From a virus (lineage: Duplodnaviria > Caudoviricetes): a stretch of 64,000 nucleotides of DNA. Of this stretch, positions 41,391 through 63,430 are shown piece after piece (position 1 is the first letter of the stretch; the number at the start of each line of letters is the position of its first letter). The position numbers and the translations under genes are program-made. A model generated the notes under the pieces. That model was not told where the DNA came from, did no database searches, and was given only the letters and a program-made list of their open reading frames with translations. The stretch is from the IMG/VR virus record IMGVR_UViG_3300010282_000004, positions 83,595 through 147,594 of that record; one strand, 5' to 3'.

Positions 41391-41462
41391 AATTTTGATC
41401 TCCTTTGTTCTTTAAAATTTGTTTATTTGTTGTTCAATATTCAGTTGTATGCATTAAAAAAC

Positions 41463-41912
41463 TCACACTGCTTCTTGTGTGAGTTCTCTAACTTCATCTT
41501 CAGTTAAAATTCTGATTGGTTTTAACCATTCAGATAAATACCAGATGCCTTGTGGTCTTTCATACTCAACAACATTCATTGCCTCGCATTCCATCCACAC
41601 TCTTCTTTCACCACTCTTTAGCTGATCTGCTATCCAACTTGCTTCCGGCAACGGACATGAATGCCAACCACCAATTGGATTCTCGCTATCAGTTCCATTA
41701 ATGCTTCTAGGTGCAAATCCCTTTGTAGGATGATATTCAGATTGCATCCATTCACCAAACTCAAATGGTTTCTTGTTATCAATAAACAGTGGATAATACT
41801 TACCATCATTAAGTACTCTAACTTTCTTATAAACGATCTTTGTTCCTTTCATATTCATTACCTCACTTTCATTTGCATTGTTTGTTGCTACATTTGTTCT
41901 TACTTCACTCAT
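41463..41912 (-). CDS. hypothetical phage protein
   Basis: YPLFI...GFAPR...GWHS...RVWMECE. Confidence 0.75.
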   Translation of the reverse strand: MSEVRTNVATNNANESEVMNMKGTKIVYKKVRVLNDGKYYPLFIDNKKPFEFGEWMQSEYHPTKGFAPRSINGTDSENPIGGWHSCPLPEASWIADQLKSGERRVWMECEAMNVVEYERPQGIWYLSEWLKPIRILTEDEVRELTQEAV

Positions 41913-41936
41913 TGTTTTAATCTCCCTTTTGTTTAA

Positions 41937-41969
41937 TAAAAAAGGAAGTCCATGTTTCAGGACTTCCTT
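41937..41969 (-). terminator. intrinsic terminator
   Basis: AAGGAAGTCC/GGACTTCCTT plus T tract. Confidence 0.75.
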
Positions 41970-41986
41970 GATAACGTGTTCTATAT

Positions 41987-42262
41987 TTAGTTTTCAATTT
42001 GTTTAATATCATTGTATGGAACTGCATAATACTCTATTGAATAATCATTAAACATATTAAATCCACAAAATCCATTTGAATCAATTACTTCAAGATCATA
42101 TACATCTTTTGTGCCAAAGCTAAAATTGTCTGCATCTTCATTTCTGTCTTCTTCTATAATTTCAATAATATAATTTTGTGCTTCTTCTCTTGTACCAAAT
42201 ATTTTTCTTATAAAGAATTCTCCATCACTTCCAAATGCAGTAATAATATAAGTTTTTTTCAT
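41987..42262 (-). CDS. acidic hypothetical protein
   Basis: ORF with AAGGAG RBS. Confidence 0.7.
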   Translation of the reverse strand: MKKTYIITAFGSDGEFFIRKIFGTREEAQNYIIEIIEEDRNEDADNFSFGTKDVYDLEVIDSNGFCGFNMFNDYSIEYYAVPYNDIKQIEN

Positions 42263-42328
42263 AATTTAATCTCCTTTCTTATTTAAAAAGGAGTGGCATA
42301 CATTTTAGTACACCACTCAAAATATTAA

Positions 42329-43264
42329 CTATGCACTAAGCACTACATCTAAGGCACGATCAAGCATCTTATTTCCATCGATTGTTTTAAGAAATTTGTT
42401 TTCCTTGTAGTTTGCAGTTCTTCTAAAGGGTTCAATGTGAGTTGTTGTATCTGCAACTGCCTGAATCAATCTTGCTCCAGTCTTATCTAACATGATTAAA
42501 TCAGGAGCATCATTATATCTTCTGATAATATCTAACTGTATTACCTTAGCATTCTTAATTTGTGTTTCAGTCATCTTACTCTCGTCAATAGGAACAATAT
42601 CATTAACCATTCTTCTAAGAGAGATGTCGTTTAACTTAACCTTATACAGATCTTCGAAAGTTTCTTTTGTACTTTCCATATAAGCATGAGCAAGTTTTAA
42701 TGTGTCACTTGCATCATTTAACTTTGAGTTAATGTTTCCTGTATGTCTTGTAGACCATGTTCTACTTGCATTTCTCATTGCCATATTCAATGTGTTTTGG
42801 CATACAACTCTAACAGGTGTCATAGCAACTCTAACAGAACCACTTCCATCATGTGTATTTGTAAATACTACATATGGATCTACCTTATCACCAAGAATGG
42901 TAAATTCATCTGGAAGTAATGCTAACAACCAAATTGTTCTTCCACCATTAAGCGATCCGGCAGTTTCATATCTTACACCTTCTCCAAGAAGAGAGTCTGT
43001 AAAATCAAATGCATCTCTGTTCTGTACAATCTGATATCTGTCACCTACAATACCAAGTGGCTTTCCGTCAACATCTCTTATGTTTACATAATTGCCAGGA
43101 ATTTGGATTCCATTTTCTGTGTAGATGTTCTGTCTTTCTACATTCCAATCAAGTCCTGCAAGTCTAATTGCATCTGCACTTGTTGGTGCTTCCTTTACAA
43201 TAATTCCCATTCCATGCCACGGTGTTACTCTTGTTGAATACATTGTTTCTACGTTTGCTGCCAT
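42329..43264 (-). CDS. DUF932 / TIGR03299-type phage-plasmid protein
   Basis: MAANVETM...PWHGMG, AGLDW, YETAGSL.GG, NTHDGSG, TPVRVVCQNTL. Confidence 0.9.
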   Translation of the reverse strand: MAANVETMYSTRVTPWHGMGIIVKEAPTSADAIRLAGLDWNVERQNIYTENGIQIPGNYVNIRDVDGKPLGIVGDRYQIVQNRDAFDFTDSLLGEGVRYETAGSLNGGRTIWLLALLPDEFTILGDKVDPYVVFTNTHDGSGSVRVAMTPVRVVCQNTLNMAMRNASRTWSTRHTGNINSKLNDASDTLKLAHAYMESTKETFEDLYKVKLNDISLRRMVNDIVPIDESKMTETQIKNAKVIQLDIIRRYNDAPDLIMLDKTGARLIQAVADTTTHIEPFRRTANYKENKFLKTIDGNKMLDRALDVVLSA

Positions 43265-43400
43265 AATTTTTTCCTCCTAAAAATTAGATTCGTTTATTAA
43301 TCGTTCCATATTCAGTTGTATGCATGAGATTAAAGTGTATTGTTAAAATAAATCTTTCTTAATATAATTCACCTTGCATAACTTTATTCTCCTTTTTTGT

Positions 43401-44018
43401 TTATTCAAATGCCCATTTTGCAACTTGTTTATATGCATGTTCCATAAGATGCTCGTGTTTATCATCGTCTATCATTTTGGTTATTGCTATCTCACATTCT
43501 TTTTTGAATTTATCAAATGAATTTGTGATTGGAACTTCAATATTTGCATCGAACATAGTGTATGGGAATCCATTATAATTTCCATAATGATCATTTTCAT
43601 CTTCATCAATATTGGTGCAATATGTATTTGTATATAAATACCATGCACTTAAATCTAATGTATGCTGAAACTCAATACTTAAATCTCCAACACACACTTT
43701 TCCATAGAAATCAGATCCGTCAGTATTTTTAGTTAAATGATCAATCATCATTTCTGCCCATTCACTTTCTGTCATTGCCCATACAAACTCAAGTTTTTCA
43801 ACATGTTGACAAACTTCTTGGCAAAAGATTACATCATCATTATCAAATACATGTAATGTATATTCATCATCTTCTGGTTCTCTATGTAGTCCAATTTCAA
43901 GGAATCTATTTGGTGTGTATTCAATTAATCTTCCGTTCTTTGACCACTCACCTGGTTTAAGTTCTCTCCAATCAGGGAACATTTCCTGTACAGAATCATC
44001 AACACTAATCTTTCTCAT
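43401..44018 (-). CDS. acidic hypothetical protein
   Basis: 205-aa ORF. Confidence 0.7.
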   Translation of the reverse strand: MRKISVDDSVQEMFPDWRELKPGEWSKNGRLIEYTPNRFLEIGLHREPEDDEYTLHVFDNDDVIFCQEVCQHVEKLEFVWAMTESEWAEMMIDHLTKNTDGSDFYGKVCVGDLSIEFQHTLDLSAWYLYTNTYCTNIDEDENDHYGNYNGFPYTMFDANIEVPITNSFDKFKKECEIAITKMIDDDKHEHLMEHAYKQVAKWAFE

Positions 44019-44020
44019 AC

Positions 44021-44221
44021 TTATTTACCTTCCTTTCCAATAATCTCGTTCCAAATGTTCATACCATCTTCACTGGTAATTTTTCCTTCAAGTTCCAATA
44101 CTGTAAGAACTCCATTCCAAAATGCCAATGCAACTTCGTTTGGATTCTTAACATAAAACTGCATCAAATCATAACCGGGTCTCTTACATAAATACTTCCA
44201 TACTTCATTCCATGTTTTCAT
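44021..44221 (-). CDS. hypothetical protein
   Basis: MKTWNE after GTGAGG. Confidence 0.6.
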   Translation of the reverse strand: MKTWNEVWKYLCKRPGYDLMQFYVKNPNEVALAFWNGVLTVLELEGKITSEDGMNIWNEIIGKEGK

Positions 44222-44248
44222 ATTATTATTCCTCACTTTTTTTAATCT

Positions 44249-44279
44249 AAAAGGGAACCCATATAATGGATTCCCTTTT
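44249..44279 (-). terminator. terminator hairpin
   Basis: AAAAGGGAA/TTCCCTTTT. Confidence 0.7.
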
Positions 44280-44295
44280 GTTATCAGTTCCATAT

Positions 44296-44670
44296 TCAGT
44301 TGTTAGTATTAAATTTCTTTTCGAAGAATACATCCCATTCTTCATCGCTTATTGATACAAGGCTATCAAAGTCAAGCCATTCAAGCTCAAGTCTAATAAA
44401 CTCTTCAAGTGTACTATACTCATTATCTGATACAATATATCCATCAATCTCTGTTACGATTGCATTTCTTGTAAGATCGATGGTTACTTGTACTTCATGA
44501 CTATCTCCATTTATTTCGTCTTCCAAATCTGTACATGCCACACTAATATTTGAAAGATCAGAGAAGTCTACATCATAATCAAATTCCGTCTCATCCCCAA
44601 GGAAATCCTTGATATAATAGTCGTTAATAAGCTTTTTTGCTTGATCGATAAGTTCATTTGTTTTGCTCAT
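44296..44670 (-). CDS. acidic protein resembling a domain of Firmicute large polyvalent proteins
   Basis: AKKLINDY...DFSDLS...HEVQVTIDL...LDFDSLVSI (recalled similarity). Confidence 0.6.
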   Translation of the reverse strand: MSKTNELIDQAKKLINDYYIKDFLGDETEFDYDVDFSDLSNISVACTDLEDEINGDSHEVQVTIDLTRNAIVTEIDGYIVSDNEYSTLEEFIRLELEWLDFDSLVSISDEEWDVFFEKKFNTNN

Positions 44671-44870
44671 ACTTCACACCTCACTTTCTATTCCCATTTA
44701 TCCCATTGTTCATTTTCAACAACAGGTATTTCTTCTATTACCTCAAGTCCATCTAACTCATCTATATAAAGAATAAAACTTCCAGTTGAATCACAATAAC
44801 CAATGATACCATTTAACTCATCGTTATCAGGTGTCTCAATAATTCTTTTATAATCACTTACTATCATAAC

Positions 44871-45125
44871 TCATACCTCTCTTTCCCAAATAACTTCGTA
44901 TACATCAGGTTGTTCAAACCTATTGTTATACTTGTCTTCCGTTTTCCATGCTCTCAGGACAATTTCATCAAATCCATTCTCTTCAGCAACTTCAATTGCA
45001 GATTGGAAATCATAACAGATTTCATTGTCCCAGTTATCAAACTTACTTATCAGAAAGTCAACACATCTAAACTTTTTAGAATCGATTGCCTTTCCGTCTT
45101 GTGTAAAGAATACCATATTCATCAC
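44871..45125 (-). CDS. hypothetical protein
   Basis: ORF with RBS. Confidence 0.6.
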   Translation of the reverse strand: MMNMVFFTQDGKAIDSKKFRCVDFLISKFDNWDNEICYDFQSAIEVAEENGFDEIVLRAWKTEDKYNNRFEQPDVYEVIWEREV

Positions 45126-45310
45126 CTCTCTTTCTCAATCATAACTATATGGTTGTCTACCATGTTCATAATCATCTTGTGTCCAAGATGCCTTCCATGA
45201 TGCTCCAAGAACAGAATAGCCAAGGCTTTCTAAAGCCTCAGCTATCTTTTCTGCATCAATATCATTTCTGTCAAGTAAAATGTCCAATGAAAACTGTACT
45301 ACATCCATAA

Positions 45311-45856
45311 TTAATTCTCCTTTCCGTTTAATATTCTGATTTCATTTAGTATATTGAAGTATGCATTAGTTGCATCATACTCTTCTTCTGTTAAGTATCT
45401 ATATGACATAAGGAATTCATCCTTACTTAACATCATAAAATCAAACATCTTTTCAGCATCGTTTATAAATATTGATCCTGATTTTTTCTTAAGTACATTT
45501 TCGCTTATATAATCAAGGATAAAAAACTTCATTTGCTCTATAAGCTCGCCATCAATTATAATCCTGTTATAATTAAATGGCTCAAATTCGTTGTAATCAG
45601 TTGAATACTGATCAAATTCATTGTAGTTAGCAGATGTAGTATCCAATTTCATTATGTATATTGCAGAATAATCATTGCCTGAATTACATGAAAGATTAAG
45701 TTCTGCTCCATACATAACTCCACCTATTGGAGCATTAAGATATACTTGAACTTCTCCCCATAAATCAACATACTCATAATTTTTAAGTGCTTTTACATAT
45801 TTGTTGTACTCATCATTTGTAATATTAATTTGTACATCCCACATTTTGTTTTCCAT
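45311..45856 (-). CDS. hypothetical protein
   Basis: C-terminal DAEKMFDF...EFLMSYRYLTEEEYDAT. Confidence 0.7.
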   Translation of the reverse strand: MENKMWDVQINITNDEYNKYVKALKNYEYVDLWGEVQVYLNAPIGGVMYGAELNLSCNSGNDYSAIYIMKLDTTSANYNEFDQYSTDYNEFEPFNYNRIIIDGELIEQMKFFILDYISENVLKKKSGSIFINDAEKMFDFMMLSKDEFLMSYRYLTEEEYDATNAYFNILNEIRILNGKEN

Positions 45857-46076
45857 AATTTTAATCTCCTTTCAAAATTTACTTTTATTGTTAATCGTCG
45901 CCACCATCTTCAATTAGTTCTCCACAATCTGGACAACATGGAACTTTTTCATTTTCATCAAAACTTAGGTCAAAAGCATCTTTCCACATATATCCACATA
46001 CTGGACATTCATACCATCCATCTTCTCTTTTAATTTTATATGCCATATATCATTATCCTCCATTAAAAATCTTGTT

Positions 46077-46286
46077 TTATTGTTCTCCAAAGAATACGTA
46101 AACCATTTCACTGAATGTTTCAAAATATAATTGTGTACCAGCAAATATACAAGACACAATCGTATCTCCAAGATCAGGAAGATCACATTCTCCATTGTAT
46201 TCCTCATACATTTCCGTAGGTGTCATATGCCATTCTCTTTCTTCTCCATTACAGTTAATGCTAATAAATTCGATTTTGTGTTCCAT
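46077..46286 (-). CDS. acidic hypothetical protein
   Basis: ORF with AAGGAG RBS. Confidence 0.6.
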   Translation of the reverse strand: MEHKIEFISINCNGEEREWHMTPTEMYEEYNGECDLPDLGDTIVSCIFAGTQLYFETFSEMVYVFFGEQ

Positions 46287-46303
46287 AATTATTCTCCTTT
46301 CAT

Positions 46304-46744
46304 TTATTGAAATTTTTTGTTAGCACTTGCATAAATTAATGCCTTTAATTTGTGACCAAGTAATTGTTGTGCCGTAAAAAATGTCATACCTGTATCAATT
46401 ACATTGTCTACAAAATATATTTCTGTTCCTTCTTTTATTGCACAAGTTAGATACATTGTAGGTTTGTGTATGATTCCTTTCTTTTTTTGTTGATATAACA
46501 TTTCATGCGGAATACATTTCAATACATCACATACAGTAGTACCAGTATTTTTTGCTATTATTTTTGAAATCTCCCTTGTATACATTGCAAATCCTTGATG
46601 ATTTGGAGCCGGGACTAAGATAGACTTTTCATTTATTAAATCCAGGTTCATAAAATAATCTGCCATCTCATTTATAGCCACTTTATCGTTTTCTTTTACA
46701 CCATGGCAAACTTCTCTTACGTGTTTGTTTTTGTAATTCTGCAT
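46304..46744 (-). CDS. phosphoribosyltransferase-like (ComF-type) protein
   Basis: LVPAP; FVDNVIDTGMT PRPP-binding loop. Confidence 0.75.
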   Translation of the reverse strand: MQNYKNKHVREVCHGVKENDKVAINEMADYFMNLDLINEKSILVPAPNHQGFAMYTREISKIIAKNTGTTVCDVLKCIPHEMLYQQKKKGIIHKPTMYLTCAIKEGTEIYFVDNVIDTGMTFFTAQQLLGHKLKALIYASANKKFQ

Positions 46745-46762
46745 TCCATTCTCCCTTCATTT

Positions 46763-47143
46763 TTAATAAACAAGTTTAATTGTTTCGTTTTCAACCATTT
46801 CTTTATGCTCCCTATACATTTCAGCTTCTTCATCATCACGAGGCCCACCAGCATTATAATCAAATATAGTAATTTCAACATTTTCGTTAGATGAATAAAT
46901 GTTATAAAATCCATATTCGTCTACCTCAATATGTATGATTGTTTTATCCACATTTTCATTTTTAACAGTTTCAATTTCAAATCCATACACACAGAAATCA
47001 TATGTATCAGACAACCAATCTGCAATATCCTCATCATCGACATCATTTGGAATATCAACATGATCCGGCAATCCAATAAATTGTGCTAATCCATTTTCCT
47101 CTTCCTCATCATAATCCCATACAATATTTACTGCTCTTCTCAT
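46763..47143 (-). CDS. highly acidic hypothetical protein
   Basis: NIVWD...LP...IADWLSDTYDFCVYGF. Confidence 0.7.
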   Translation of the reverse strand: MRRAVNIVWDYDEEEENGLAQFIGLPDHVDIPNDVDDEDIADWLSDTYDFCVYGFEIETVKNENVDKTIIHIEVDEYGFYNIYSSNENVEITIFDYNAGGPRDDEEAEMYREHKEMVENETIKLVY

Positions 47144-47160
47144 ATTTTCGTTCTCCCTTC

Positions 47161-47709
47161 TTATTTAAACTCATCAAATTCTCTTCCGTATTTATGAAAG
47201 TGCCTATCCATGTACTCACAGAAGAACTCTTCCATTGTATAGTATTCGCCAAAATCACAAAGAATATCTTGTACAATATCCTGATCCATTTTGTTAACTG
47301 TATCATCCCACATTCCATTGTCCATAAGATATCTTGCCCACAAATCATCATAATCGATTGCTCTTACGAACCAATCAAGCACACTCTTATCTTTGTAACC
47401 TTTTATATCATCATACGTATAACCAAGTTCGTCATACAACAACTCTGCCTCATCGATATCTGTTTCACAATAATCATTTGACATTTTTATAAATGCCTCA
47501 AGTCCTATATCAATTGCCTTTCTATACTCTGGTGTTTGATATGTTTTTGTTTCAATTCCATCAAATTCTTCCTTTGTCAACTCACCATAACTACGGAACA
47601 ATGTATTCATATACCCATAGCCATAATAAATTTTCTCTGCTTCTTTCTCTGTTGCAACATATTCAACATCCTTTTTACAATCGTCCCAAATAGTAATTAC
47701 TTCGTACAT
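47161..47709 (-). CDS. acidic protein with AcrIC5-like C-terminal domain
   Basis: VNKMD...EEFFCEYMDRHFHKYGREF. Confidence 0.55.
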   Translation of the reverse strand: MYEVITIWDDCKKDVEYVATEKEAEKIYYGYGYMNTLFRSYGELTKEEFDGIETKTYQTPEYRKAIDIGLEAFIKMSNDYCETDIDEAELLYDELGYTYDDIKGYKDKSVLDWFVRAIDYDDLWARYLMDNGMWDDTVNKMDQDIVQDILCDFGEYYTMEEFFCEYMDRHFHKYGREFDEFK

Positions 47710-47796
47710 AATTTTAATCTCCTTTTTGTTTAAATAAGGGCGACTCTATATGAATCGCCCTATGTTTACAAACTCCATATTCAGTTATATATATGA

Positions 47797-48009
47797 TTAT
47801 TCTTCATCGAATTCATCATATGTGTTACGAACGTAATCGTATCCGTTATCTGCCTTACGACCAATACGTTCAAATTGTGATTCGATTACAAATAAATCAC
47901 CAGAGCTAGTTACATCTTCTGCATCCTCAAGGATACATTCACACATTGCTTGAATATCAAGTGCCATTTTCTTGATTCCTTCTAATCTCTTTTCTACGTT
48001 CTTGCTCAT
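47797..48009 (-). CDS. hypothetical protein
   Basis: ORF with AAGGAG RBS. Confidence 0.65.
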   Translation of the reverse strand: MSKNVEKRLEGIKKMALDIQAMCECILEDAEDVTSSGDLFVIESQFERIGRKADNGYDYVRNTYDEFDEE

Positions 48010-48026
48010 AATTTTTAATCTCCTTC

Positions 48027-48347
48027 CTAAAAATCTTTTTCCACTATTGCAATCTTTCCTTCGTTTCTATATACAAAATACCTGCCACTCAATGTATAAA
48101 GAATGTTTGCCTTATCTTTCAATTCTTCTTGACTTAGACAATCATAAGAATATATATTAATCTCGCTACCATAAATCTCACCTAGCCATTTCCACTTTTC
48201 ATGTTCTTTATTAAATTTCTCCTTCTGTTTTTGTGTTCTAACGATTTTAACACTAAAACCTCCGTCACCATATCCGTTTGGAAAACAAACATTAAAATTA
48301 CTTGTGCCAATCATTATTGTTCCACCATCACAATCGTACTTCTTCAT
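48027..48347 (-). CDS. hypothetical protein
   Basis: PNGYGDG motif. Confidence 0.7.
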   Translation of the reverse strand: MKKYDCDGGTIMIGTSNFNVCFPNGYGDGGFSVKIVRTQKQKEKFNKEHEKWKWLGEIYGSEINIYSYDCLSQEELKDKANILYTLSGRYFVYRNEGKIAIVEKDF

Positions 48348-48367
48348 ACCTCATCTCTCCTTTCTGT

Positions 48368-48790: not shown

Positions 48791-48857
48791 CTCTCCTTTT
48801 CTTAATATGGGGAGCCTATATAAGACTCCCAGGTTGTTAGTTCCATATTCAGTTGTA

Positions 48858-49154
48858 TTATTGTTTGTAATCATCCTTGTCCTTACATACAATTCCGTTA
48901 CAATACAAACCACCTGAGTTATAAGCTCCCTTCATAACTCTTAAGAAGCAACTCATGAAATCTTTGAACGTTTCATCTTCTGTGTAGTAGTCATCTACGT
49001 CATCAACATCAATACTTCCGTACTTTATGTCACCATCTGGCACACCACTCATAAGCCAACGATCAAATACATCCTCATCATTGACATGTCTGGCAATAAA
49101 TTCCATTGCAAGAATCATTTTCTTTCTCTCGTTAATGTTTACTTCCTTTCGCAT
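48858..49154 (-). CDS. hypothetical protein
   Basis: NDEDVFDRWLMSGVPDGD. Confidence 0.7.
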   Translation of the reverse strand: MRKEVNINERKKMILAMEFIARHVNDEDVFDRWLMSGVPDGDIKYGSIDVDDVDDYYTEDETFKDFMSCFLRVMKGAYNSGGLYCNGIVCKDKDDYKQ

Positions 49155-49158
49155 AATC

Positions 49159-50162: not shown

Positions 50163-50181
50163 GTTCGTAATCTCCTTTCAA

Positions 50182-50372: not shown

Positions 50373-50669
50373 TTACTTCCCACCTTTCTTTGCTAAAAAG
50401 CCATTTTTGTTACATTCCATATTCAGTTGTAACATGCAGATTGTATTATCAAATTCCGTTATCTGTTTCACAAGTCGCTTTGCCATAGGCCCACTAAGCA
50501 TCTTATTATTTGTTGGAATGCTAATTGAATCTTTAAACGTAACACTTCCAATTGTTACAGATCGCTCATATACTGTATGAGAACCACCATTATTTCTTGT
50601 TCTTACATATCCGTATTCATCTAATATGTTTTGGAAATCTCTCAATTTCATATTTTGCATTTTGTTCAC
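50373..50669 (-). CDS. HicA-like mRNA interferase
   Basis: FQNILDEYGY...GGSHTVY...ISIP. Confidence 0.65.
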   Translation of the reverse strand: MNKMQNMKLRDFQNILDEYGYVRTRNNGGSHTVYERSVTIGSVTFKDSISIPTNNKMLSGPMAKRLVKQITEFDNTICMLQLNMECNKNGFLAKKGGK

Positions 50670-52589: not shown

Positions 52590-52616
52590 GTTTTTCTCTC
52601 CTTTTTCTTTGCATAC

Positions 52617-52648
52617 AAAAGAGAGTGACCAAATAGCCACTCTCTTTT
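52617..52648 (-). terminator. intrinsic terminator
   Basis: AAAAGAGAGTG/CACTCTCTTTT. Confidence 0.75.
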
Positions 52649-52686
52649 AACATTTGTTCCATATTCAGTTGTATATATGATCACTT

Positions 52687-54649: not shown

Positions 54650-54673
54650 AATATTATTCTCCTTTCTTTTCCC

Positions 54674-56644
54674 TTATGCTCTAACCCACTCGCCATTTTC
54701 GTTGAGTTCGAATCCGTAGTTCCTTGCGTTTTCTTCGTCCCTGAAACGGTATTCATATTCAATTACGATATAGTCATAATCATTTGTTAAATACCACTGC
54801 TCATCGTAATTATCCCAAAATGCCTCCTCGCTTCTGTATGCATCTCCATCAACCTCTACGTAGCCTGCATTTTCCATGTTTTCTCTGTTTGCGAACCAAA
54901 CTCCGTCTCCACTAATCCATTCATCGCTATTATCATAATAGTCCTGTGAATAATATGCTCCTGTATATGAATCTGCCCACCAATCTGTGTGCCAATTTTC
55001 ATCATCTTCACAGAGTCTAAGTCCATCATTTCTTGCACAACTCTCGCAACAATAATACTCATCATTGTCTTCACAATAAATACGATCCCAATCATCTTCA
55101 TATATTGTTCCATCACAATTACAACAACTTGCAATTACATCTTCCCTTTCAGGCTCTTCCATTGAATTGTGATGATAGCAGAATACACTTTCCTTTCCTC
55201 TATGAGTGTCTCCACAGTAAGGACATATAGGATTATGACCAATATTTATTGTTCTCATTTCTGTTTCTGACAGATGACTATATCCACAATCATCATAGCT
55301 TAAATAATCAGCATAATGTGTACCTTCTGTACATGAATAATCCTCACATCCAGATACTCCCTTTTTCACTTTCCACAAATTGTTGAATCCGAGGCATTCT
55401 GACAATACCTTCTGCATTACATTTCTAAACTGTGCGGCTAATCCTGTTTCACCGCCATCTCTTCCATCTGGATATAATCTACCGAAAATAAAGTGCTTTC
55501 CGTCTTCTCCAATGTGGAACATCATACGTCTATCTTTATCTGCTTTCCACATATCTCCCTTATAATCTGCATCAACCGTGTAGAACACAACTGAACTATT
55601 ATCAAGCATATAGCTTTCTGTTCCTGCACTATACATTCCGTTGTATACATGCTCAGAGTCATATACATCTCTTACATTTAACTTATCAATGGTATGACAG
55701 GAAGCAGTATTCTTAAAGAACGACATTGTCCAGTAATCCATCGGATTAATGGAGATTACAGTATACTTTGTAATATGCAAAGGATTTACTGCATCACCGA
55801 GCATTGCCATGTAGTAATTGAATCCATAGTCTTTCATCTCCCTTACTTCATGGTCACTTCCGGCATGACGGACAACTTCTTTCATGTCTTTTACTTTATC
55901 AATTCCATAATGCTTACAAATCTTATTAATAATTCTTGACACTTTCTGTCCTGCAACTGCCCTAAAATCTCCAAGATTATTTACCTTTCTTGCAAAATCT
56001 TCATCAGCAACATTACTGTCATACGAGTAATAGTTGAAGAACTCAAATACCTTTCTAAGCTCCGTGTAGTCTGTATAAAGCATATAAAATTCTTCTTCAT
56101 CAAATGTGTACTTTGTAAGAGTATTAAAGTAATCAGTAAGCCTTACATACTCTTCCTTATACTCATACCTCTGTCTTACGGCAGCTTCGTAAAGATCGTC
56201 ATTAATACGATTTCTGTTGTATAAGGTGATATCTCTTGCAGCAATGTACCTTTCTCTTACGAATAAGTACCTTTCTTCATCAAACTGAACCTTACGTTCA
56301 GCATTCTTTTTTCCGATTTGCTTTGCAAACCAATAGCAAGCTTCCTTTATATGAGCCATATCAATGCCAGTATCATAGGAACTGTCATAGATAATAACCT
56401 GCTGACGCTCATCCCATCTAGTATGCTTTCTTAAGATAGAACGAAGATTCTTCTTTGCGTTCCACCACATAGGGAATAACTTTGTTGCGATGTTATTATC
56501 ACTTTCAGATCCATATGAGTACTTCAACTCATCGAACAAATCTGCTGCCTCTCGAGCGGTCTTATTGAAGTCGAAGATATTACTTGCCTTTCCTTCAGAT
56601 ACCAAATTTGCCTCTACTGCATTTCTCATTGCTTCCATTTTCAT
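54674..56644 (-). CDS. large conserved-Cys/His protein with Zn-finger repeats (paralog B)
   Basis: ASCHTID, YSAGTESYMLD, FGRLYPDGRDGG; start after AAGGAGG. Confidence 0.8.
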   Translation of the reverse strand: MKMEAMRNAVEANLVSEGKASNIFDFNKTAREAADLFDELKYSYGSESDNNIATKLFPMWWNAKKNLRSILRKHTRWDERQQVIIYDSSYDTGIDMAHIKEACYWFAKQIGKKNAERKVQFDEERYLFVRERYIAARDITLYNRNRINDDLYEAAVRQRYEYKEEYVRLTDYFNTLTKYTFDEEEFYMLYTDYTELRKVFEFFNYYSYDSNVADEDFARKVNNLGDFRAVAGQKVSRIINKICKHYGIDKVKDMKEVVRHAGSDHEVREMKDYGFNYYMAMLGDAVNPLHITKYTVISINPMDYWTMSFFKNTASCHTIDKLNVRDVYDSEHVYNGMYSAGTESYMLDNSSVVFYTVDADYKGDMWKADKDRRMMFHIGEDGKHFIFGRLYPDGRDGGETGLAAQFRNVMQKVLSECLGFNNLWKVKKGVSGCEDYSCTEGTHYADYLSYDDCGYSHLSETEMRTINIGHNPICPYCGDTHRGKESVFCYHHNSMEEPEREDVIASCCNCDGTIYEDDWDRIYCEDNDEYYCCESCARNDGLRLCEDDENWHTDWWADSYTGAYYSQDYYDNSDEWISGDGVWFANRENMENAGYVEVDGDAYRSEEAFWDNYDEQWYLTNDYDYIVIEYEYRFRDEENARNYGFELNENGEWVRA

Positions 56645-56742
56645 TTGTTCGTCCTCCTTAGACATAAACATTTAATAGTTAATTCTCCGCAATTCTCGTT
56701 TAAGGTCGGTTTTCCGTTGATTGCGTGACCAAGTATTTGGGC

Positions 56743-56778
56743 ATAAAAAAAGACACTATCCAAATTTGGACAATGCCT
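56743..56778 (-). terminator. intrinsic terminator
   Basis: hairpin followed by TTTTTTTATGCCC. Confidence 0.65.
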
Positions 56779-57015
56779 TTAAATCAAATTCTCGTATACC
56801 ATCAACTGAAAACAGGCTCTGGTATATTCACGTTCTGTGAACATTGCCCTAGAGCCTGTTTCATCAAAATTGATGTTACACTTTCGTAAGAACTTCTTCT
56901 GCCTTTCGTTCAAGCCCTTAATCTCGAAGTCCTTACTTTCGCTTCTGTATTTAGTTTTCCGTTTCAATATCCTCACCACCTTTCGTATATGATTCAAGAA
57001 ATTCTCTAATCTCAA
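56779..57015 (-). CDS. hypothetical protein
   Basis: ORF; start uncertain. Confidence 0.5.
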   Translation of the reverse strand: MRLENFLNHIRKVVRILKRKTKYRSESKDFEIKGLNERQKKFLRKCNINFDETGSRAMFTEREYTRACFQLMVYENLI

Positions 57016-57316
57016 TCGTATGTCTCAATTCATCTGCAAAAATACTGTAATATTCTTTGCATATAAAATCGAGCAAATCCTGATATGAACAAATTTTGAC
57101 AAGCTCACATGTAGCAATATCAGTTTCGCATTTTCCATCCCTAAAGATCAATACAATGTCAGTTCCTGCTATATTTACCTCTACAGTTTCTCCAGAAACT
57201 TTTTCTACAACACCTATTTCTTGTGACCCTCTATGATGTTCTCCACCATACACTTTAAACAATACTGTGTTTCCAGCCACAAGACTTGCACCGTTAAGCA
57301 AAAATACATTTTTCAT
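56951..57316 (-). CDS. hypothetical protein sharing a domain with 57684..58112
   Basis: VEVNI.G...F..GKCE...C.LV...Y.DL. Confidence 0.65.
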   Translation of the reverse strand: MKNVFLLNGASLVAGNTVLFKVYGGEHHRGSQEIGVVEKVSGETVEVNIAGTDIVLIFRDGKCETDIATCELVKICSYQDLLDFICKEYYSIFADELRHTIEIREFLESYTKGGEDIETEN

Positions 57317-57504
57317 TTTCGTACCTCGCTTTCTATTTTATACATGTCAAATTCAACTCTTTTCTTCTTGAGTTTTTCAAAAACTTCTGCCGATGAATTT
57401 GAAGTACGTACTGCAATTATTACTTTTGCGTAATCTTCGCAACTAAAAATGTACCCATCTTCTGTTTTAAAAGAATGTTCAAGCATTTTGAGTTCCATTT
57501 TCAC
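57313..57504 (-). CDS. hypothetical protein
   Basis: translationally coupled ORF. Confidence 0.55.
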   Translation of the reverse strand: MKMELKMLEHSFKTEDGYIFSCEDYAKVIIAVRTSNSSAEVFEKLKKKRVEFDMYKIESEVRK

Positions 57505-57683
57505 TTCACCTCGCTTTCTTCCTTAACAACAATTTCCTTTATGCTGCAAAAGCTTAGTCCTTCTATTGCTTTTTCTGCAAGTTCTCTTGTTGCATAGAAT
57601 TCGTCATAGATAGTAAATGTTTCACCATCATATGTATAATCATCTACCCATTCTTCGTGTACAGTTGCATAAATTTTCATATC

Positions 57684-58112
57684 TTAATATCCTCCTTTTA
57701 TATATTTGATTAAATCACTGTATCTTGCACACCTAACAAGCTTACATTTTTCCCTGTTGAATTCACATTTTCCGTTGACAAATTTTAGGTGTGGTGCATT
57801 TTCACCAAAAATATTAACCTCTACCACATCTCCTTCAACACTTGTTACACATCCAACTTCCATGTTTCCAAATTCCATTCCTGAATTAGCAGAGGTTAAA
57901 TCCATGTCTACAATTACAACATCGCCAGCACTAAATACAGGATTAAATTCCTCTTCTACTATCGCATCAACAGACAATACTTCTGGATCATAAGTACACG
58001 TATGTATCAAAGTAAAGTTATCTGTTGCTCGTTCAATAGCCTCATCTAATGAATTTGCCTCTACAAACTCACAATCTTCAAACATCATAGTTACACAATA
58101 TTCCTTGCTCAT
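57684..58112 (-). CDS. hypothetical protein
   Basis: VEANSLDEA; C-terminal domain shared with 56951..57316. Confidence 0.7.
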   Translation of the reverse strand: MSKEYCVTMMFEDCEFVEANSLDEAIERATDNFTLIHTCTYDPEVLSVDAIVEEEFNPVFSAGDVVIVDMDLTSANSGMEFGNMEVGCVTSVEGDVVEVNIFGENAPHLKFVNGKCEFNREKCKLVRCARYSDLIKYIKGGY

Positions 58113-58131
58113 AATCTCAATCTCCTTTTCT

Positions 58132-58314
58132 CTATCTGCTTACGTATTTTTCCATGGCTGACTTACAAGTTGCAAGGTCACCACGAAGGATGATCTTATT
58201 CGTATATGTCTCAATGAACATATACTGACCAAACAGTTCTACGATTGCCTTTCCGTACTGTGAATCGACAATCTTCATATACTTCACATATCTGGAATCA
58301 ATTTTTCTTCCCAT
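58132..58314 (-). CDS. hypothetical protein
   Basis: ORF with RBS. Confidence 0.55.
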   Translation of the reverse strand: MGRKIDSRYVKYMKIVDSQYGKAIVELFGQYMFIETYTNKIILRGDLATCKSAMEKYVSR

Positions 58315-58584
58315 ATAGCACCTACACCTCCTACATCATCATTCTGATTGCGATTGAAATGACTAACAACAGTACAAATGAAATCGCATTGACGATTTTT
58401 GCTCGTCTTGCCTTTGCTTTGCTCATATTAAATACCTCCTTCCAAGCTATCGAATGCTATGTACCATTCGCCAATAAAGTTTATGTAATAAAAACCGTTT
58501 TCTCCAATTCCAGTTAATACGGAGTTGTGTTTTTTGCACCATTCTGTTGCAACTTCCATAAGTTTTTGTGCATTACTCATTGAA

Positions 58585-58887
58585 CTACGCCTCCTTTCCT
58601 ACTTCATACATAATATCCGGCATCAAATCTAATACAGAGTACTTAACAAAAGTTTGCCTTGCATCCAAAGCTTCATCTCCATCGAGTTCTTCGACAATCA
58701 CTTCTCGTGATTGCACAAAGTAAATTCTGCCTGTATCTATGTCGATGAAATCTGCAATTCCGTCATCATCTCTAAAGTCGATACATCTACCCTTAGAAAT
58801 CTTTCCATCCTGTACAAGAGTGTAGTTATACACTCTCTGATCCATAGGTCTATCAAATTCCATTTCCATTTCTCTCGCTCCTTTCAT
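58585..58887 (-). CDS. hypothetical protein
   Basis: 100-aa ORF. Confidence 0.65.
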   Translation of the reverse strand: MKGAREMEMEFDRPMDQRVYNYTLVQDGKISKGRCIDFRDDDGIADFIDIDTGRIYFVQSREVIVEELDGDEALDARQTFVKYSVLDLMPDIMYEVGKEA

Positions 58888-59117
58888 TAGCGAATTTCTG
58901 TGTTCATTAACATAAGATACAAGCCTACAGGAAACAAAAATACTGTTGCGGTGATATCACCATCAAGCAATACTGGACATGCAATTCCAATCAAAGCCAA
59001 TGCAGCTCCCATAATTTTCTGCTTAAGAATAACCATTTTCCTTCTTCTCATCTCACGCACTCTCCTTTCCCTATTCAACTGCCACATATCTTCATCAACA
59101 AGTGTTACTTTGCTCAT
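58887..59117 (-). CDS. small membrane protein
   Basis: KQKIMG...DGDITA; two TM segments. Confidence 0.65.
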   Translation of the reverse strand: MSKVTLVDEDMWQLNRERRVREMRRRKMVILKQKIMGAALALIGIACPVLLDGDITATVFLFPVGLYLMLMNTEIR

Positions 59118-59118
59118 A

Positions 59119-59415
59119 TTAGCAAGCCTCCTTTCTGATTGTGATGAGAACTCGCAAAATATCATTCTCCGTTTTGCAAGCATCAATCATCTTCTGCGCC
59201 TTATCTACGAGTGACAACTGGTCAGAATACAACTGACTCACTACTTCCTTTGCCTCATCCCATGGTGTTTTCTGTGTTTCTTCGTTATGCATTTCAATAC
59301 CTCCATTTCTCTTCTCTGCGATTGCATGCAGCTCTTTGATTGTTGTAATCATATTGCGGTTAATTTCTTCTACAACTTCCTTTGCTACCAAAAGGTTCTG
59401 TTCACTTAATCCCAT
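59119..59415 (-). CDS. hypothetical protein
   Basis: MGLSEQ after GAGG. Confidence 0.65.
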   Translation of the reverse strand: MGLSEQNLLVAKEVVEEINRNMITTIKELHAIAEKRNGGIEMHNEETQKTPWDEAKEVVSQLYSDQLSLVDKAQKMIDACKTENDILRVLITIRKEAC

Positions 59416-59437
59416 AGTGTTTACCTCGCTTTCCACT

Positions 59438-59473
59438 AAAAAAAGGACATCCACTGTATAAGTGAATGCCCTT
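59438..59473 (-). terminator. intrinsic terminator
   Basis: AAGGGCATTCACT/AGTGGATGTCCTT plus T tract. Confidence 0.75.
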
Positions 59474-59496
59474 ATCATTGGTTCCATATTCAGTTG

Positions 59497-59799
59497 TCAA
59501 TCTTCATACCCACAGTAACGAACATCTCGAACCGTGTCATCCTCGATGTTGTCTGTTCCGTTGTCATCCATGGTCATTGCCATGATGTCTCCAACCATCC
59601 AGTCTTCGATACCAGTAAACGACCACATATTTCCGTTGAAGTCCTCTGCAACAAAGCAATCTGCAGACTCATCAACATATGTGATTGTTGCACACAACGG
59701 ATATGTTGTATGCTTTTTAGGTACCGTTACAAGTGTAACAGTGAACATTACAAAGATTGCAACAACCACGAATGCCCACAACTTATCTCTGAGTTCCAT
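59497..59799 (-). CDS. membrane-anchored small protein
   Basis: TM helix then DFNGNMWSF...MDDNGT...DD...RY. Confidence 0.7.
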   Translation of the reverse strand: MELRDKLWAFVVVAIFVMFTVTLVTVPKKHTTYPLCATITYVDESADCFVAEDFNGNMWSFTGIEDWMVGDIMAMTMDDNGTDNIEDDTVRDVRYCGYED

Positions 59800-60025
59800 A
59801 TGCCAATCTCCTCCTTTCCATGTACTCCTTATTTCCTTTTGCTTCATATTTTTCCTTAAGGTATTCATATGACCTCAAGGCATAATTGTAATCTGTGTTC
59901 TGTGATGATGCATGTCCTCTATTTCCGTCAGATACATATACACAATAGGCTCCATTACTATATGTAAGTGAAATCCTGTATGTGTTGTGGCCAATCCATG
60001 ACCACTTATATTCTTGCATTTGCAT
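59783..60025 (-). CDS. hypothetical protein
   Basis: MQMQEY after GGAGG. Confidence 0.6.
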   Translation of the reverse strand: MQMQEYKWSWIGHNTYRISLTYSNGAYCVYVSDGNRGHASSQNTDYNYALRSYEYLKEKYEAKGNKEYMERRRLAYGTQR

Positions 60026-60026
60026 T

Positions 60027-60254
60027 TTAGTTACCTCCATTTCCATTTCCGTTTGCTACTGCATCTACGATTGCATAGATTGTTAACAGTTCCGTTGCAT
60101 TGTTAATAGCTTCGATTATTTCTTTTGCGTTTCCGTTTCCCTTTGCCAACAAAAGAGATACGAATGAATATCCGTATTTCTCTTTCGAGTACAAATTTGC
60201 CTTTTCCATTTCCGTTTGCCTCCTTATAGGTTTTGATTTCCGTTTCTGTTGCAT
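60027..60254 (-). CDS. hypothetical protein within a hexamer-repeat tract
   Basis: GNGN repeats; start uncertain. Confidence 0.45.
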   Translation of the reverse strand: MQQKRKSKPIRRQTEMEKANLYSKEKYGYSFVSLLLAKGNGNAKEIIEAINNATELLTIYAIVDAVANGNGNGGN

Positions 60255-60330
60255 TTGCCTTACTAGGTAAATATGAATTTGATTTCCGTTTCCGTTTCCG
60301 TTCCATATTTACCTAGATATTGATTTCCCT

Positions 60331-60639
60331 TCATTCCATGAACAATTTTACAATCTTATTTCCGATTGCTTCGTTTCCATTTGTCTTGTGTAATTTTTCT
60401 ATCTTAGAAAGAATTGCCCAAGACAGGAATGTTAACGTACTGTAGTTTTCTACAGTTACAGTTTCTGTTTTCTCATCAACTCGAACAACTACATTTTCGT
60501 TTCCGTTATACTCAACTGTCGTATTGGAATTTGGAACGTATTTATTGATATTAGTTGTCATGTAGTTACAATAGTGATTAACAACTCTAGGTCTTAACCC
60601 ATACTTCATTGTTGTCACACCCATAACTACCATCATCAC
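60331..60639 (-). CDS. hypothetical protein
   Basis: 102-aa ORF. Confidence 0.55.
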   Translation of the reverse strand: MMMVVMGVTTMKYGLRPRVVNHYCNYMTTNINKYVPNSNTTVEYNGNENVVVRVDEKTETVTVENYSTLTFLSWAILSKIEKLHKTNGNEAIGNKIVKLFME

Positions 60640-60722
60640 TCATTAGGTAGTTGACATGGTTGAGGAACTACTGTACTCTAGTAGTGAGTCCCCTCGATGT
60701 TGTTAATAGTTACTAGTGATTG

Positions 60723-60905
60723 TTATTCACAACAACCACTGATTGAGTAGCCAGCATCGACTAACTCACGAGTGGTGTCGTGGTAGTCATCTTCATCACA
60801 CTGAGCTACCACTACACCATCACACCAAAACAAGTACTTAGTATATACTGGATTGGTGTCACGCATGCTCTCAACAGATATTCTTCTCGAATACCCCATT
60901 GGCAC
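60723..60905 (-). CDS. hypothetical protein
   Basis: ORF after GGAGG. Confidence 0.55.
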   Translation of the reverse strand: MPMGYSRRISVESMRDTNPVYTKYLFWCDGVVVAQCDEDDYHDTTRELVDAGYSISGCCE

Positions 60906-61009
60906 ACCTCCTTCCTATGCACCTATTGAGTACTTATGGCACATAAAAAGGGACACGACCAAATCTATACGAAATGGTCATGCCCCATGTTTATATGTCA
61001 TAATGGAGA

Positions 61010-61858
61010 TTAAGCGTTCATCTGACGTTCTTCCTCATTGTCAAAGAAGATGACGTAGGCTTTCTCATGACTGATGTAACCATCAGGCTCTTCGATTGCT
61101 ACATCTCTGAGTTCATAGTCACAACGACCATTCTCAGATTCTTCAATAATAGATTTTGCCACATCAACTTTATATGCAAACTGTACAGTCTTGCCGATGT
61201 ATAATTTCTCAGCAAGATCCTTGGAGAATACTGCCGTATAGTCAGACATCTCCTCATGGCAATATCTCTCCTCGAATACATAGCCAAGGCTGAGTTTGTC
61301 ACTAATATCCTTAATACAGTTGATGACTTCCTCGGAATTGGAGTAAATTGCTCCTCGTCCATAATTCTGAACGTCACAGATAGTGTCTATAACTTCATCC
61401 CACAAATCCCGGCACTCCTCAAGATTACGAGAGAATTCGTACTCATAACGGTACGGATTGTCACTGTTGCCATGCTCAAACTCAACCTCAAGAGTTGCAC
61501 TGTCGCCATGCCCTATGACATAAAATGTAGTGTCCTTGAGATTCGGAATCTCAATCATGATTGTTCCAATAGCATCACCGAGATGACCGTCCTTAGATCT
61601 AGTATGAAAGTAATAGATTGGCTGGTCTTTCATAATATCTAAACGGCAGATAAAGTCGTTTGAATCTGAAGGTAAGAACCACTGAAGTCGGCTACCCCAC
61701 TCATATTCAGTGATACTTGGATGAGCATTAGGCTCAACAATCTGATCAAAGACAAATAAGAAATTGCCACCGCTGAGTCTTGATGCCTTGGTTACGAATT
61801 CAACAAAGTTTGTGGATTCGGACTTGTTAACAGTTGCGATTTTTGATTCTTTTTTTAT
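61010..61858 (-). CDS. hypothetical protein, probably starting at a non-canonical ATA
   Basis: frame stays open 75 codons above the ATG at 61633, up to an ATA preceded by AGGAG. Confidence 0.65.
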   Translation of the reverse strand: MKKESKIATVNKSESTNFVEFVTKASRLSGGNFLFVFDQIVEPNAHPSITEYEWGSRLQWFLPSDSNDFICRLDIMKDQPIYYFHTRSKDGHLGDAIGTIMIEIPNLKDTTFYVIGHGDSATLEVEFEHGNSDNPYRYEYEFSRNLEECRDLWDEVIDTICDVQNYGRGAIYSNSEEVINCIKDISDKLSLGYVFEERYCHEEMSDYTAVFSKDLAEKLYIGKTVQFAYKVDVAKSIIEESENGRCDYELRDVAIEEPDGYISHEKAYVIFFDNEEERQMNA

Positions 61859-61899
61859 AGAATTCTCCTATTCTCCACCGTTAGCCGTGGTCGCTGAAA

Positions 61900-62166
61900 T
61901 TAAAATTTAATTTTTTTAACTGATACATATTCATTTCTACTAGCGTAATCCTTATTAGAGTAGTGAGCGATAATCTCCTCCGGTGAAAACTTAAGACCGT
62001 TGTCAGTCCATGTTCTACGACTTGATTCATAGATTTTACCATTGCATGAGACAACAGTGTTAGCACTGTACTCCCATGAATGGTTCACATAATCAAAATT
62101 GAAAGTGATTAATATCACTCTCTTAAATCCATTCATTGGGTTGAAGAATGTTATTTTATACTTCAT
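61900..62166 (-). CDS. hypothetical protein
   Basis: AAGGAGG RBS. Confidence 0.7.
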   Translation of the reverse strand: MKYKITFFNPMNGFKRVILITFNFDYVNHSWEYSANTVVSCNGKIYESSRRTWTDNGLKFSPEEIIAHYSNKDYASRNEYVSVKKIKF

Positions 62167-62204
62167 ATTATTCCTCCTTGTAATATATAGGTGTTAACAG
62201 TTAC

Positions 62205-63358
62205 ACAAAGTATTCTGTCGTAGCATAGTCACTACCTTTGTGACCTATCCAACAGATACTTCGAAAGGGTGTGTTGGGAGTCGAACCCAAGAACATTGGT
62301 TCTTTATCCAGCCAATGTATCCGCAAAGCTCCAAATGACAAATGAGCCATTCTTCACAATCAACACCCATCTTTCGAGTAGCCATCACTAATGGTGGTAT
62401 CCCACGACTACTCTAGCCAACCGTCTGTATGTTCTACTATGTATGTAGTAGTCTTGCTAGTAAGCAAGTTTCAAGAGATACACACTACCTCTTGTGGCAT
62501 GGGGTCAACAATCTAGCGGATGGCTAATTATCCATACCAAACTGTGGCACTACTCACAGTCAGTTCTTAGGAGCTTTTCACAAGCAATCCCTGTCTGCGA
62601 CTTGGTCGTTGCTTGCTCTAACTGGGCTTTTACCACTAAGTAACATGTTGTCGATTCACATCGGAACTGTTACTATCATTGTGCTACTGCTCACACCCAG
62701 ACCTTGTACCCTTCGTCTCTTCCTCCACGGAACGGCTAACCGATTATCAGGCTCTACGGTTATCATGGTGACGTTGTCGTAACTGCGGTTATCCCAGAGA
62801 AGTTTTGTTGGTAGAGTATGAATACCAACACTTGCTCTGTCGTCCCACATAGAAGTGTCTGTCACCCACTTCGTTACGTCCTCGACCATTGGGGAACCCA
62901 TATGTAATTGTCAACCATTACTAGATAGTCTTACACAGAGTTGACTAGACTCTGATGCTACTTTCATGGCGAATACCTTCAGTCAAGGTACTCTAGGAAC
63001 GTTGATACTACTGTTATTCATATCAACGTTTGTTGGGTAGTTTGGTATTTGACCCAACTGATACACATCTAGTCTGTGACTAGGAAAGCATCCCCTCAAA
63101 AACTGACTACCGTAAGATATATACCCGGAAACCTCTGTAGTCGGCTTTTGAGATGACGCTTTGATATATGAAATTTTTATAAATCATAGAGTATATATAA
63201 GAGCGTAAGATGGATAACTCTATGAAATTTATGGTGATTGGTTGTAGGGTAGATAGTGTGGAGAGCCTGTGTAGATTACACATCCACTATCTACGACCGA
63301 TATGTGGCTCTCACCCTACTCGGTCTGTGAAGTACAAAACTTGAAAAGTCGACTTCAC
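62205..63358 (-). ncRNA. putative large structured non-coding RNA / leader (~1.15 kb)
   Basis: GC-richer, no credible CDS, more than a dozen consecutive inverted repeats, embedded tRNA-like T-arm; strand inferred from context. Confidence 0.6.
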
Positions 63359-63367
63359 CTTTGGGCA

Positions 63368-63404
63368 TAAAAAAAAGCCGTTCACACGTCTGTGAACGGC
63401 TTTT
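63368..63404 (-). terminator. strong intrinsic terminator
   Basis: AAAAGCCGTTCACA/TGTGAACGGCTTTT followed by a T tract and ATGCCC. Confidence 0.8.
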
Positions 63405-63430
63405 CAATCAATATTCAGTTGTATCGGCTA

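Follow-up and report, generated by a model that had tools for sequence, protein, structure and literature searches.

The final 64 kb of a 147.6-kb virus contig from IMG/VR (IMGVR_UViG_3300010282_000004), hereafter the window, carries ten strong copies of a 17-nt sequence, ACAACTGAATATGGAAC, in the early region of what is an SPbeta-like phage. This sequence, which we call the box, recurs in other phages and in conjugative elements, and it is, as far as we can tell, a real, polar and previously undescribed element of Lachnospiraceae mobile DNA. On sequence comparison we tentatively favor the reading that the box is a nut-like site, which would use host Nus factors to act on the terminator next to it; the protein that reads it, its reading as RNA and the direction of its effect are points that we infer.

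The box is repeated on one strand of the phage early region

Allowing up to three mismatches, the pattern matches the window 14 times, always on the minus strand, as compared to 0.49 matches expected by chance, and none of 100 shuffled windows (0/100) contained 14 matches. When the entire contig was scanned with a position weight matrix, all ten strong sites (starting at 41432, 41978, 43303, 44287, 47772, 48840, 50414, 52656, 59481, and 63406) fell within 41.4-63.4 kb of the window on the minus strand; weaker matches were seen at position 26396 of the window (minus strand) and at contig positions 28781 and 54846 (both plus strand). Thus, the pattern count, the shuffles and the whole-contig scan uphold the original prediction, made from the letters of the window, that ten same-strand copies are confined to the early region. 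Five of the copies are exact and two have a single mismatch. Conservation among them ends sharply at the edges of the 17-base box, within which positions 8-12 (AATAT, or AAUAU in RNA) are invariant in 10/10 copies. The copies are as follows, ORF denoting an open reading frame:

63406..63422, minus strand: box copy 1, ACAACTGAATATTGATT, three mismatches; 8 nt past the stop of the first early ORF; abuts a strong terminator
59481..59497, minus strand: box copy 2, exact; ATGAAGATTG directly before it, making a near-complete boxA-like core plus box
52656..52672, minus strand: box copy 3, exact; 15 nt past the stop of a DUF5688 gene
50414..50430, minus strand: box copy 4, one mismatch; followed by a weak hairpin (-5 kcal/mol); ATG 43 nt downstream
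48840..48856, minus strand: box copy 5, exact; 1 nt past a stop codon
47772..47788, minus strand: box copy 6, ATAACTGAATATGGAGT; its start, ATAACTGAA, is the commonest form in rRNA leaders
44287..44303, minus strand: box copy 7, exact; its positions 6-8 (TGA) form the stop codon of ORF 44296-44670
43303..43319, minus strand: box copy 8, exact; no hairpin after it; ATG of a DUF932 gene 38 nt downstream
41978..41994, minus strand: box copy 9, AAAACTAAATATAGAAC; preceded by TTG; its positions 6-8 (TAA) form the stop codon of ORF 41987-42262
41432..41448, minus strand: box copy 10, one mismatch; 7 nt past a terminator-like hairpin; ATG of a gene for a 209-amino acid protein 41 nt downstream

The region that contains these copies is a run of small minus-strand genes. 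Copy 9 had been described as lying inside a HicA-like coding sequence; it overlaps merely the final codons of ORF 41987-42262, and the HicA-like label is unconfirmed, as this ORF has no Pfam match.

Most phage boxes are followed by a hairpin

Folding of the downstream sequence gave a stable hairpin (-12 to -22 kcal/mol, most with T runs) after 7/10 boxes, starting 1-11 nt downstream. Six of these hairpins start 7-11 nt after the box and the seventh abuts it, all at the coordinates that had been predicted. The same prediction placed two boxes before plain leaders with a ribosome-binding site (RBS); such boxes exist, but there are three of them (41432, 43303, and 50414). The hairpins, together with the best promoter of the region, are:

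63765..63792, minus strand: sigma-A-type promoter, TGGACA-16-TG-TATGAT
63372..63405, minus strand: terminator hairpin after box 1, -22 kcal/mol, long T run
59443..59473, minus strand: terminator hairpin after box 2, -16.6 kcal/mol, T7; starts 8 nt after the box
52616..52649, minus strand: hairpin after box 3, -19.4 kcal/mol; starts 7 nt after the box
48810..48830, minus strand: hairpin after box 5, -12.4 kcal/mol, poor T run; starts 10 nt after the box
47737..47761, minus strand: hairpin after box 6, -16.6 kcal/mol; starts 11 nt after the box; ATG 62 nt after the box
44249..44279, minus strand: hairpin after box 7, -17.7 kcal/mol; starts 8 nt after the box; ATG 65 nt after the box
41942..41969, minus strand: terminator hairpin after box 9, -15.7 kcal/mol, T6; starts 9 nt after the box; ATG 65 nt after the box

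The promoter at 63765..63792 probably starts the early transcript that bears all ten boxes. Other promoter-like sites in the box region are no commoner than in shuffled sequence, and the sole box with a sigma-A-like promoter just upstream is 50414 (promoter 50473-50445). At six boxes merely 24-30 nt separate the end of the hairpin from the next start codon, which is too little to accommodate a separate promoter for any of these six genes; thus, their expression depends on transcription passing the hairpin. The distance from box to ATG is 62-66 nt at four hairpin-bearing sites when measured by script (66 nt for the 615-amino acid gene that follows box 3 at 52656), and 59481 looks much the same when judged by eye; the three boxes without a stable hairpin lie 38-43 nt from the ATG. 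Between 41390 and 52640 (minus strand), the spacing pattern makes the hairpins look as if they had been inserted into a common linker of ca. 40 nt, and similar leaders follow 41432 and 43303, both with ATAAAC.AA.

The box is widespread in Lachnospiraceae mobile DNA

A scan of one genome per species found exact copies of the box in at least 120 bacterial contigs, mostly from Lachnospiraceae, which account for ca. 50/80 contigs among the matches listed. Many of these copies are non-coding, with flanks unrelated to each other, and their gene content places many within conjugative elements of the Tn1549/CD1115 type, where the box lies between the genes for a VirD4-like coupling protein and Maff2 (39 loci) or at the end of MobA/MobL relaxase genes. 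One copy is in the leader of a tad-pilus operon (L060/L108), 109 nt downstream of a near-consensus promoter. Exact copies were also found in 43 viral contigs from several phage families; these are mostly non-coding, co-oriented with the next gene, and either ca. 30-60 nt ahead of its RBS and start codon or ahead of a hairpin. According to a rough gene call, co-oriented genes flank both sides in most intergenic cases. Box-bearing genomes contain 1-11 copies with up to two mismatches, versus 0-1 for a reversed control, and an even sample of Lachnospiraceae yielded a copy with up to one mismatch in 5/59 genomes, versus none for the control. In Enterococcus faecium Tn1549, the same VirD4-Maff2 junction has a terminator but no box, and this absence and the preponderance of Lachnospiraceae point to a link with the host. 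We found no description of the box, and no paper with its sequence, in the literature that we searched, and no Rfam 15 family matched the boxes of the window and 17 other loci or their surroundings.

The position of the box, at gene boundaries amid many small accessory genes, is what one would expect of a recombination or cassette boundary that moves such genes between mobile elements and has no role in expression. DUF5688 and DUF932 genes adjoin boxes in the phage and in conjugative elements alike, and a small palindromic insert is bracketed by the full copy and by a partial one, 11 nt long, at the VirD4 stop. However, a cargo gene in one locus (L069) does not have the box on both sides, the box lacks the inverted symmetry typical of a recombinase core site, and this explanation accounts neither for the likeness to the rRNA leader nor for the excess of downstream terminators described below. 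We therefore consider it very improbable.

Two further arrangements were noted at genomic copies. At the VirD4-Maff2 junction, the VirD4 gene ends in ACA ACT GAA TAG, which is the 11-nt partial copy (L131/L189/L181 and ca. 30 other loci), and there follow a palindrome (TTCTGGACA-N3-TGTCCAGAA), the full box, a second similar palindrome and the RBS of Maff2; the palindromes resemble operators or else a short repeat that has been inserted. Upstream of pyrG on a Lachnospiraceae chromosome (L175, 1324-1785), a 63-nt unit is repeated 7.3 times in tandem, between an aminotransferase gene and the CTP synthase gene; each unit contains TGAATATGGAAC, corresponding to box positions 6-17.

The box is transcribed and precedes terminators

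The coupling to terminators was examined in a wider set of 136 dereplicated exact copies, in which hairpins were sought within 50 nt downstream of the box, using an equal upstream window as the control. A stable hairpin was found downstream of 54/136 copies, and 24 of these were terminator-like; the control window contained hairpins at 42/136 copies, of which one was terminator-like. The other 30/54 downstream hairpins have no T run, and at several loci (L004, L139, L141, and L060) the hairpin stands directly before the RBS. Some boxes in these other loci have a canonical sigma-A promoter 55-109 nt upstream. Because such promoters precede it, as in the tad-pilus leader, the box is transcribed rather than being itself a promoter. 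No further conserved block was found at a fixed distance from the box, which rules out a two-block promoter of the sigma type.

These data bear on another of the original proposals, namely that the box is a promoter for a YonO-type RNA polymerase or a phage sigma factor, with the hairpins as 5' stem-loops. The phage encodes both a YonO homolog and a sigma factor, and a contiguous 17-bp block ending in ATAT/GGAAC recalls the promoters of single-subunit polymerases. The promoter of YonO is itself unknown (PMC5467207), which leaves room for the proposal. Nevertheless, YonO is missing from 4/5 box-bearing genomes and the sigma factor from 3/5, those that are present being encoded on other contigs; terminators after the box outnumber those before it by 24 to 1; there is no strong box ahead of the late operon; and the canonical promoters upstream of some boxes, as well as the lack of a second conserved block at sigma-type spacing, also speak against it. 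Neither YonO nor the phage sigma factor explains the box, and we regard a promoter as highly unlikely.

The hairpins allow a different role after transcription. The box could define or protect an mRNA 5' end, with a host endoribonuclease cutting at or close to it and leaving the hairpin as a protective 5' stem-loop, or it could tune translation, with a bound protein controlling a start codon ca. 40 nt further on. Consistent with this idea, the box is transcribed, many of the downstream hairpins (30/54) have no T run, with several directly before an RBS, and the spacing between box and ATG is regular, at 38-43 and 62-66 nt in the phage and ca. 30-47 nt in other phages and conjugative elements. 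On the other hand, no nuclease or RNA-binding protein is known to read a 17-nt single-stranded site of this kind, the 24/54 hairpins that are terminator-like would be unneeded in a 5' stabilizer, cleavage at the box would remove the 3' hairpin of the upstream mRNA, and the regular spacing may stem from duplicated linkers, the leaders after 41432 and 43303 being alike. A role at the 5' end or in translation thus seems to us unlikely.

The box resembles the 16S rRNA leader downstream of boxA

In nine Lachnospiraceae genomes, the 16S leader comprises a boxA-like core followed by (C/T)AACT(G/A)AACAG. The core in one of these genomes, ATGATCTTTGA, matches the Bacillus subtilis boxA consensus, AUGAUCUUUGAAA, which is bound by NusB (PMC13753749), and the 16S leader of Lachnospiraceae bacterium 3-1, ccTTGACAACTGAACAATGGAATG, matches the box with one indel. 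When the first 11 nt of the box were compared to the stretch after the core in the nine leaders, 8-10/11 positions were identical, a score that ca. 0.15% of composition-preserving shuffles (fraction 0.0015) equaled. In Escherichia coli, the RNA just past boxA is bound by NusA, and the KH1-KH2 domains of Mycobacterium tuberculosis NusA bind extended single-stranded RNA from the rrn nut region, in which AUA is critical (PMC2724277).

If the box is a nut-like site, a transcript of ca. 25 kb, punctuated by terminators, would run from the one early promoter near 63.8 kb, and each box would emerge in the nascent RNA a few bases ahead of an intrinsic terminator. An elongation factor of the Nus type from the host, with the KH domains of NusA as the likeliest candidate, would then bind its RNA as a copy of the stretch past the boxA core in the host 16S leader, and the bound factor would alter the behavior of RNA polymerase at the hairpin, most likely causing read-through. 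A nut- or boxA-like site had been the first choice among the original proposals, and of these it agrees best with the data, which support it in part. The box is indeed transcribed, polar, placed ahead of terminators and similar to the 16S leader, but the boxA core is mostly missing. Because the box occurs in many unrelated phages and conjugative elements, a host factor is likelier than a phage N-like protein. A more specific version, which is possible but in our view doubtful, is a stand-alone switch at each terminator, in which the 17-nt RNA would capture host NusA, or another factor that binds the rRNA leader, without boxA, NusB/S10 or phage N, and would gate each gene cassette in gut phages, Tn1549-like conjugative elements and pilus operons of Lachnospiraceae.

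Several observations weigh against a nut-like site. The TTG of the boxA core is found upstream of 2/10 phage copies (59481 and 41978, of which 59481 has a near-complete core) and only 5/138 external copies; most copies thus have no core, which makes the loading of NusB/S10 unlikely. The post-boxA stretch of the 16S leader doubles as the 5' strand of the stem for 16S processing, pairing with sequence 16-20 nt past 16S (-32 to -41 kcal/mol) in a covarying manner, and base-pairing, instead of the binding of a protein, could account for its conservation in rRNA operons. The sequence after the boxA copy that precedes 23S is a different one, and the rrn-like box of B. subtilis is not enriched in SPbeta, with 3 found versus 2.2 expected. 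Known processive antitermination uses one site per operon, not ten, and we know of no precedent for a stand-alone NusA site; the resemblance between the box and the 11-mer of a NusA-RNA structure from M. tuberculosis is presumed. Many boxes have no terminator after them, and their regular distance of 30-47 nt to the ATG could hint at a role at the mRNA 5' end or in translation. Finally, if an element in cis invariably overcame the terminator beside it, some further regulatory input would be required.

The covarying stem between 16S leader and trailer is 20-29 bp long and is presumed to be the processing stalk (L196/L217, L201, and L209). Two of these Lachnospiraceae rRNA operons have the 5S gene between 16S and 23S.

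The box differs from the repressor site of SPbeta

It had also been suggested that the box is a repressor site like SPBRE, the MrpR (YopR) target of SPbeta. As a DNA operator or roadblock of this kind, it would silence early phage genes and transfer genes. The layouts are similar, in that SPBRE also occurs as multiple co-oriented, non-palindromic boxes upstream of early genes (PMC10516654), and there is a loose likeness to the SPBRE core (ACAA.T.AATATG.A). Tandem or partial duplicate boxes with a period of 16-17 nt (L006, L010, L030, and L071), the palindromes on either side of the box at the VirD4-Maff2 junction, and a phage lysogeny module that encodes a tyrosine-recombinase-family protein (35107-36117) likewise suit an operator. 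The SPBRE that we derived from SPbeta (AF020713), ACAAATACAAA(A/T)AATATGTATA, is nevertheless a different sequence, and the AF020713 stretch contains no match to the box with up to three mismatches. In sequence comparison by BLASTP, no relative of MrpR was found (35107-36117 versus YopR, E 3.4; 38422-39774 versus YopQ, E 3.0), and the recombinase motifs, read by eye from alignments, appear intact. SPBRE lies at sigma-A promoters and is private to SPbeta-like phages, whereas the box is away from promoters, which are 55-224 nt upstream or absent at other loci. Moreover, repressor-operator pairs usually diversify, yet the identical 17-mer is present in unrelated elements, with no common protein found in the 8-14 kb around their boxes, and 17 contiguous near-invariant bases suit single-strand reading better than helix-turn-helix (HTH) contacts. 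An operator is therefore improbable.

Candidate readers of the box

Several candidates for the factor that reads the box were tried and rejected. YonO is present in just 1/5 other box-bearing genomes, there on a contig without boxes; the phage sigma factor is absent from 3/5 and elsewhere lies on other contigs; and a NusG paralog, sought as a second PF02357 copy, is found in only 2/5. Neither tblastn nor clustering of the phage against the 8-14 kb stretches around boxes revealed a universal shared protein. The only families common to the phage and the box loci are DUF5688, DUF932-like and serine recombinase, none of them universal.

Readers other than proteins fared no better. A CRISPR-repeat RNA mimic (Racr) was rejected after no CRISPR-like periodic arrays of ATATGGAA were found in 401 Lachnospiraceae genomes. 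Pairing of the box with 16S rRNA was no better than that of shuffled boxes, and the same was true of pairing with the 1.15-kb structured region of the phage (below) or any early transcript. A search for a conserved host antisense partner, with G-U pairs allowed, found none above control; this search was gapless and hence blind to the 16S trailer, which has an indel relative to the complement of the box. In several contexts the box can be read as a small coding frame (TTEYGT), yet the frames differ between copies.

Gene content of the phage

The phage encodes a DNA polymerase, a RecJ-like exonuclease, helicases and a large serine recombinase. The gene for the YonO-type single-chain RNA polymerase is at contig position 3229-5865 on the plus strand (phrog_8308, E 1e-90), and that for the divergent sigma factor adjoins the repressor gene at 32822-33415 of the window on the minus strand (phrog_351, E 1e-13). 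The lysogeny module comprises an HTH repressor, this sigma factor, a tyrosine recombinase and an inserted insertion sequence (IS) element. The IS element, with an HTH_21 plus rve integrase-core transposase, occupies 36223-37661 of the window on the plus strand, between the tyrosine recombinase gene (35107-36117, minus strand) and the early genes. DNA searches in near and distant modes found no close relatives among deposited phages.

Directly after the first box and its terminator is a gene-free, hairpin-rich stretch of 1.15 kb (62205-63358 of the window, minus strand), which has no Rfam match. SPbeta has a similar non-coding gap of ca. 1.6 kb, between yonN and yonK (L001, 9153-10835), where the YonO-transcribed late operon starts. 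Either stretch might encode a long antitermination RNA of the canT or conAn2 type.

Lachnospiraceae bacterium 3-1 contains a low-GC element (G001:C12:430000-480000; L192-L194) that encodes a YonO homolog, a GmrSD-like neighbor and, at 38% identity, the same sigma factor; this element supports a Lachnospiraceae host for the phage group. No box copies and no repeated motif were found in this SPbeta-like element, which is too remote for comparison.

Comparison with known antitermination systems

The closest parallel to the arrangement that we propose is lambda nutL/nutR (boxA-spacer-boxB), which is likewise a linear RNA signal that is carried by a phage and imitates a portion of the host rRNA leader, and which likewise lies on the transcribed strand, past the early promoter and before terminators, with a hairpin a few bases on. 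The part that the box copies corresponds to the spacer after boxA, which is bound by NusA in E. coli (PMC2724277). Lambda nut differs in having the NusB/S10-binding boxA core, which most box copies lack, and a conserved boxB, whereas the hairpins of this phage vary in stem and loop and mostly have T runs. It is also present once per operon, as compared to ten boxes here, and the box is common to conjugative elements and many phages. A search for an N-like arginine-rich protein found none; the first early ORF matches no family and is not rich in arginine.

Signals of the host rrn type are likewise reused outside rRNA operons before long or poorly translated acquired units, as in the boxA of the suhB leader and of enterobacterial CRISPR array leaders (PMC13753749). 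Those, however, are true cores that load NusB/S10 and counter Rho, whereas the box is the post-core stretch, belongs to a Firmicute family and is associated with intrinsic terminators. The ops/JUMPStart (RfaH) element and LoaP leaders are likewise short, identical and polar elements in the leaders of acquired conjugation, pilus and phage operons of one host clade; ops has no sequence similarity to the box, and a specialized NusG paralog is not consistently present here (2/5 genomes). Long Firmicute mobile-element operons with internal terminators likewise need antitermination in the cases of conAn2 (pLS20) and canT (Tn916) (PMC8191782, PMC11658703), but each of these is a single structured RNA of 300-450 nt at the start of the operon, in contrast to a 17-nt linear box before individual terminators.

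Implications

Lachnospiraceae are dominant bacteria of the gut and rumen whose conjugative elements disseminate genes for resistance and fitness; to our knowledge, almost nothing is known about how transcription is controlled in these elements and in the phages of the family. Phage early regions, Tn1549-like transfer operons and a pilus operon would share a control point in a single conserved 17-nt signal, and the box would provide a simple sequence handle with which to find and engineer such operons. If it does act through host Nus factors, the lambda nut principle, namely the copying of the rRNA antitermination signal by mobile DNA, would extend to Firmicutes in the unexpected form of the post-boxA part alone, used per terminator. 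If, more specifically, it is a switch that captures NusA, the expression of each cassette would depend on how much Nus factor is available and hence on host rRNA synthesis and growth state.

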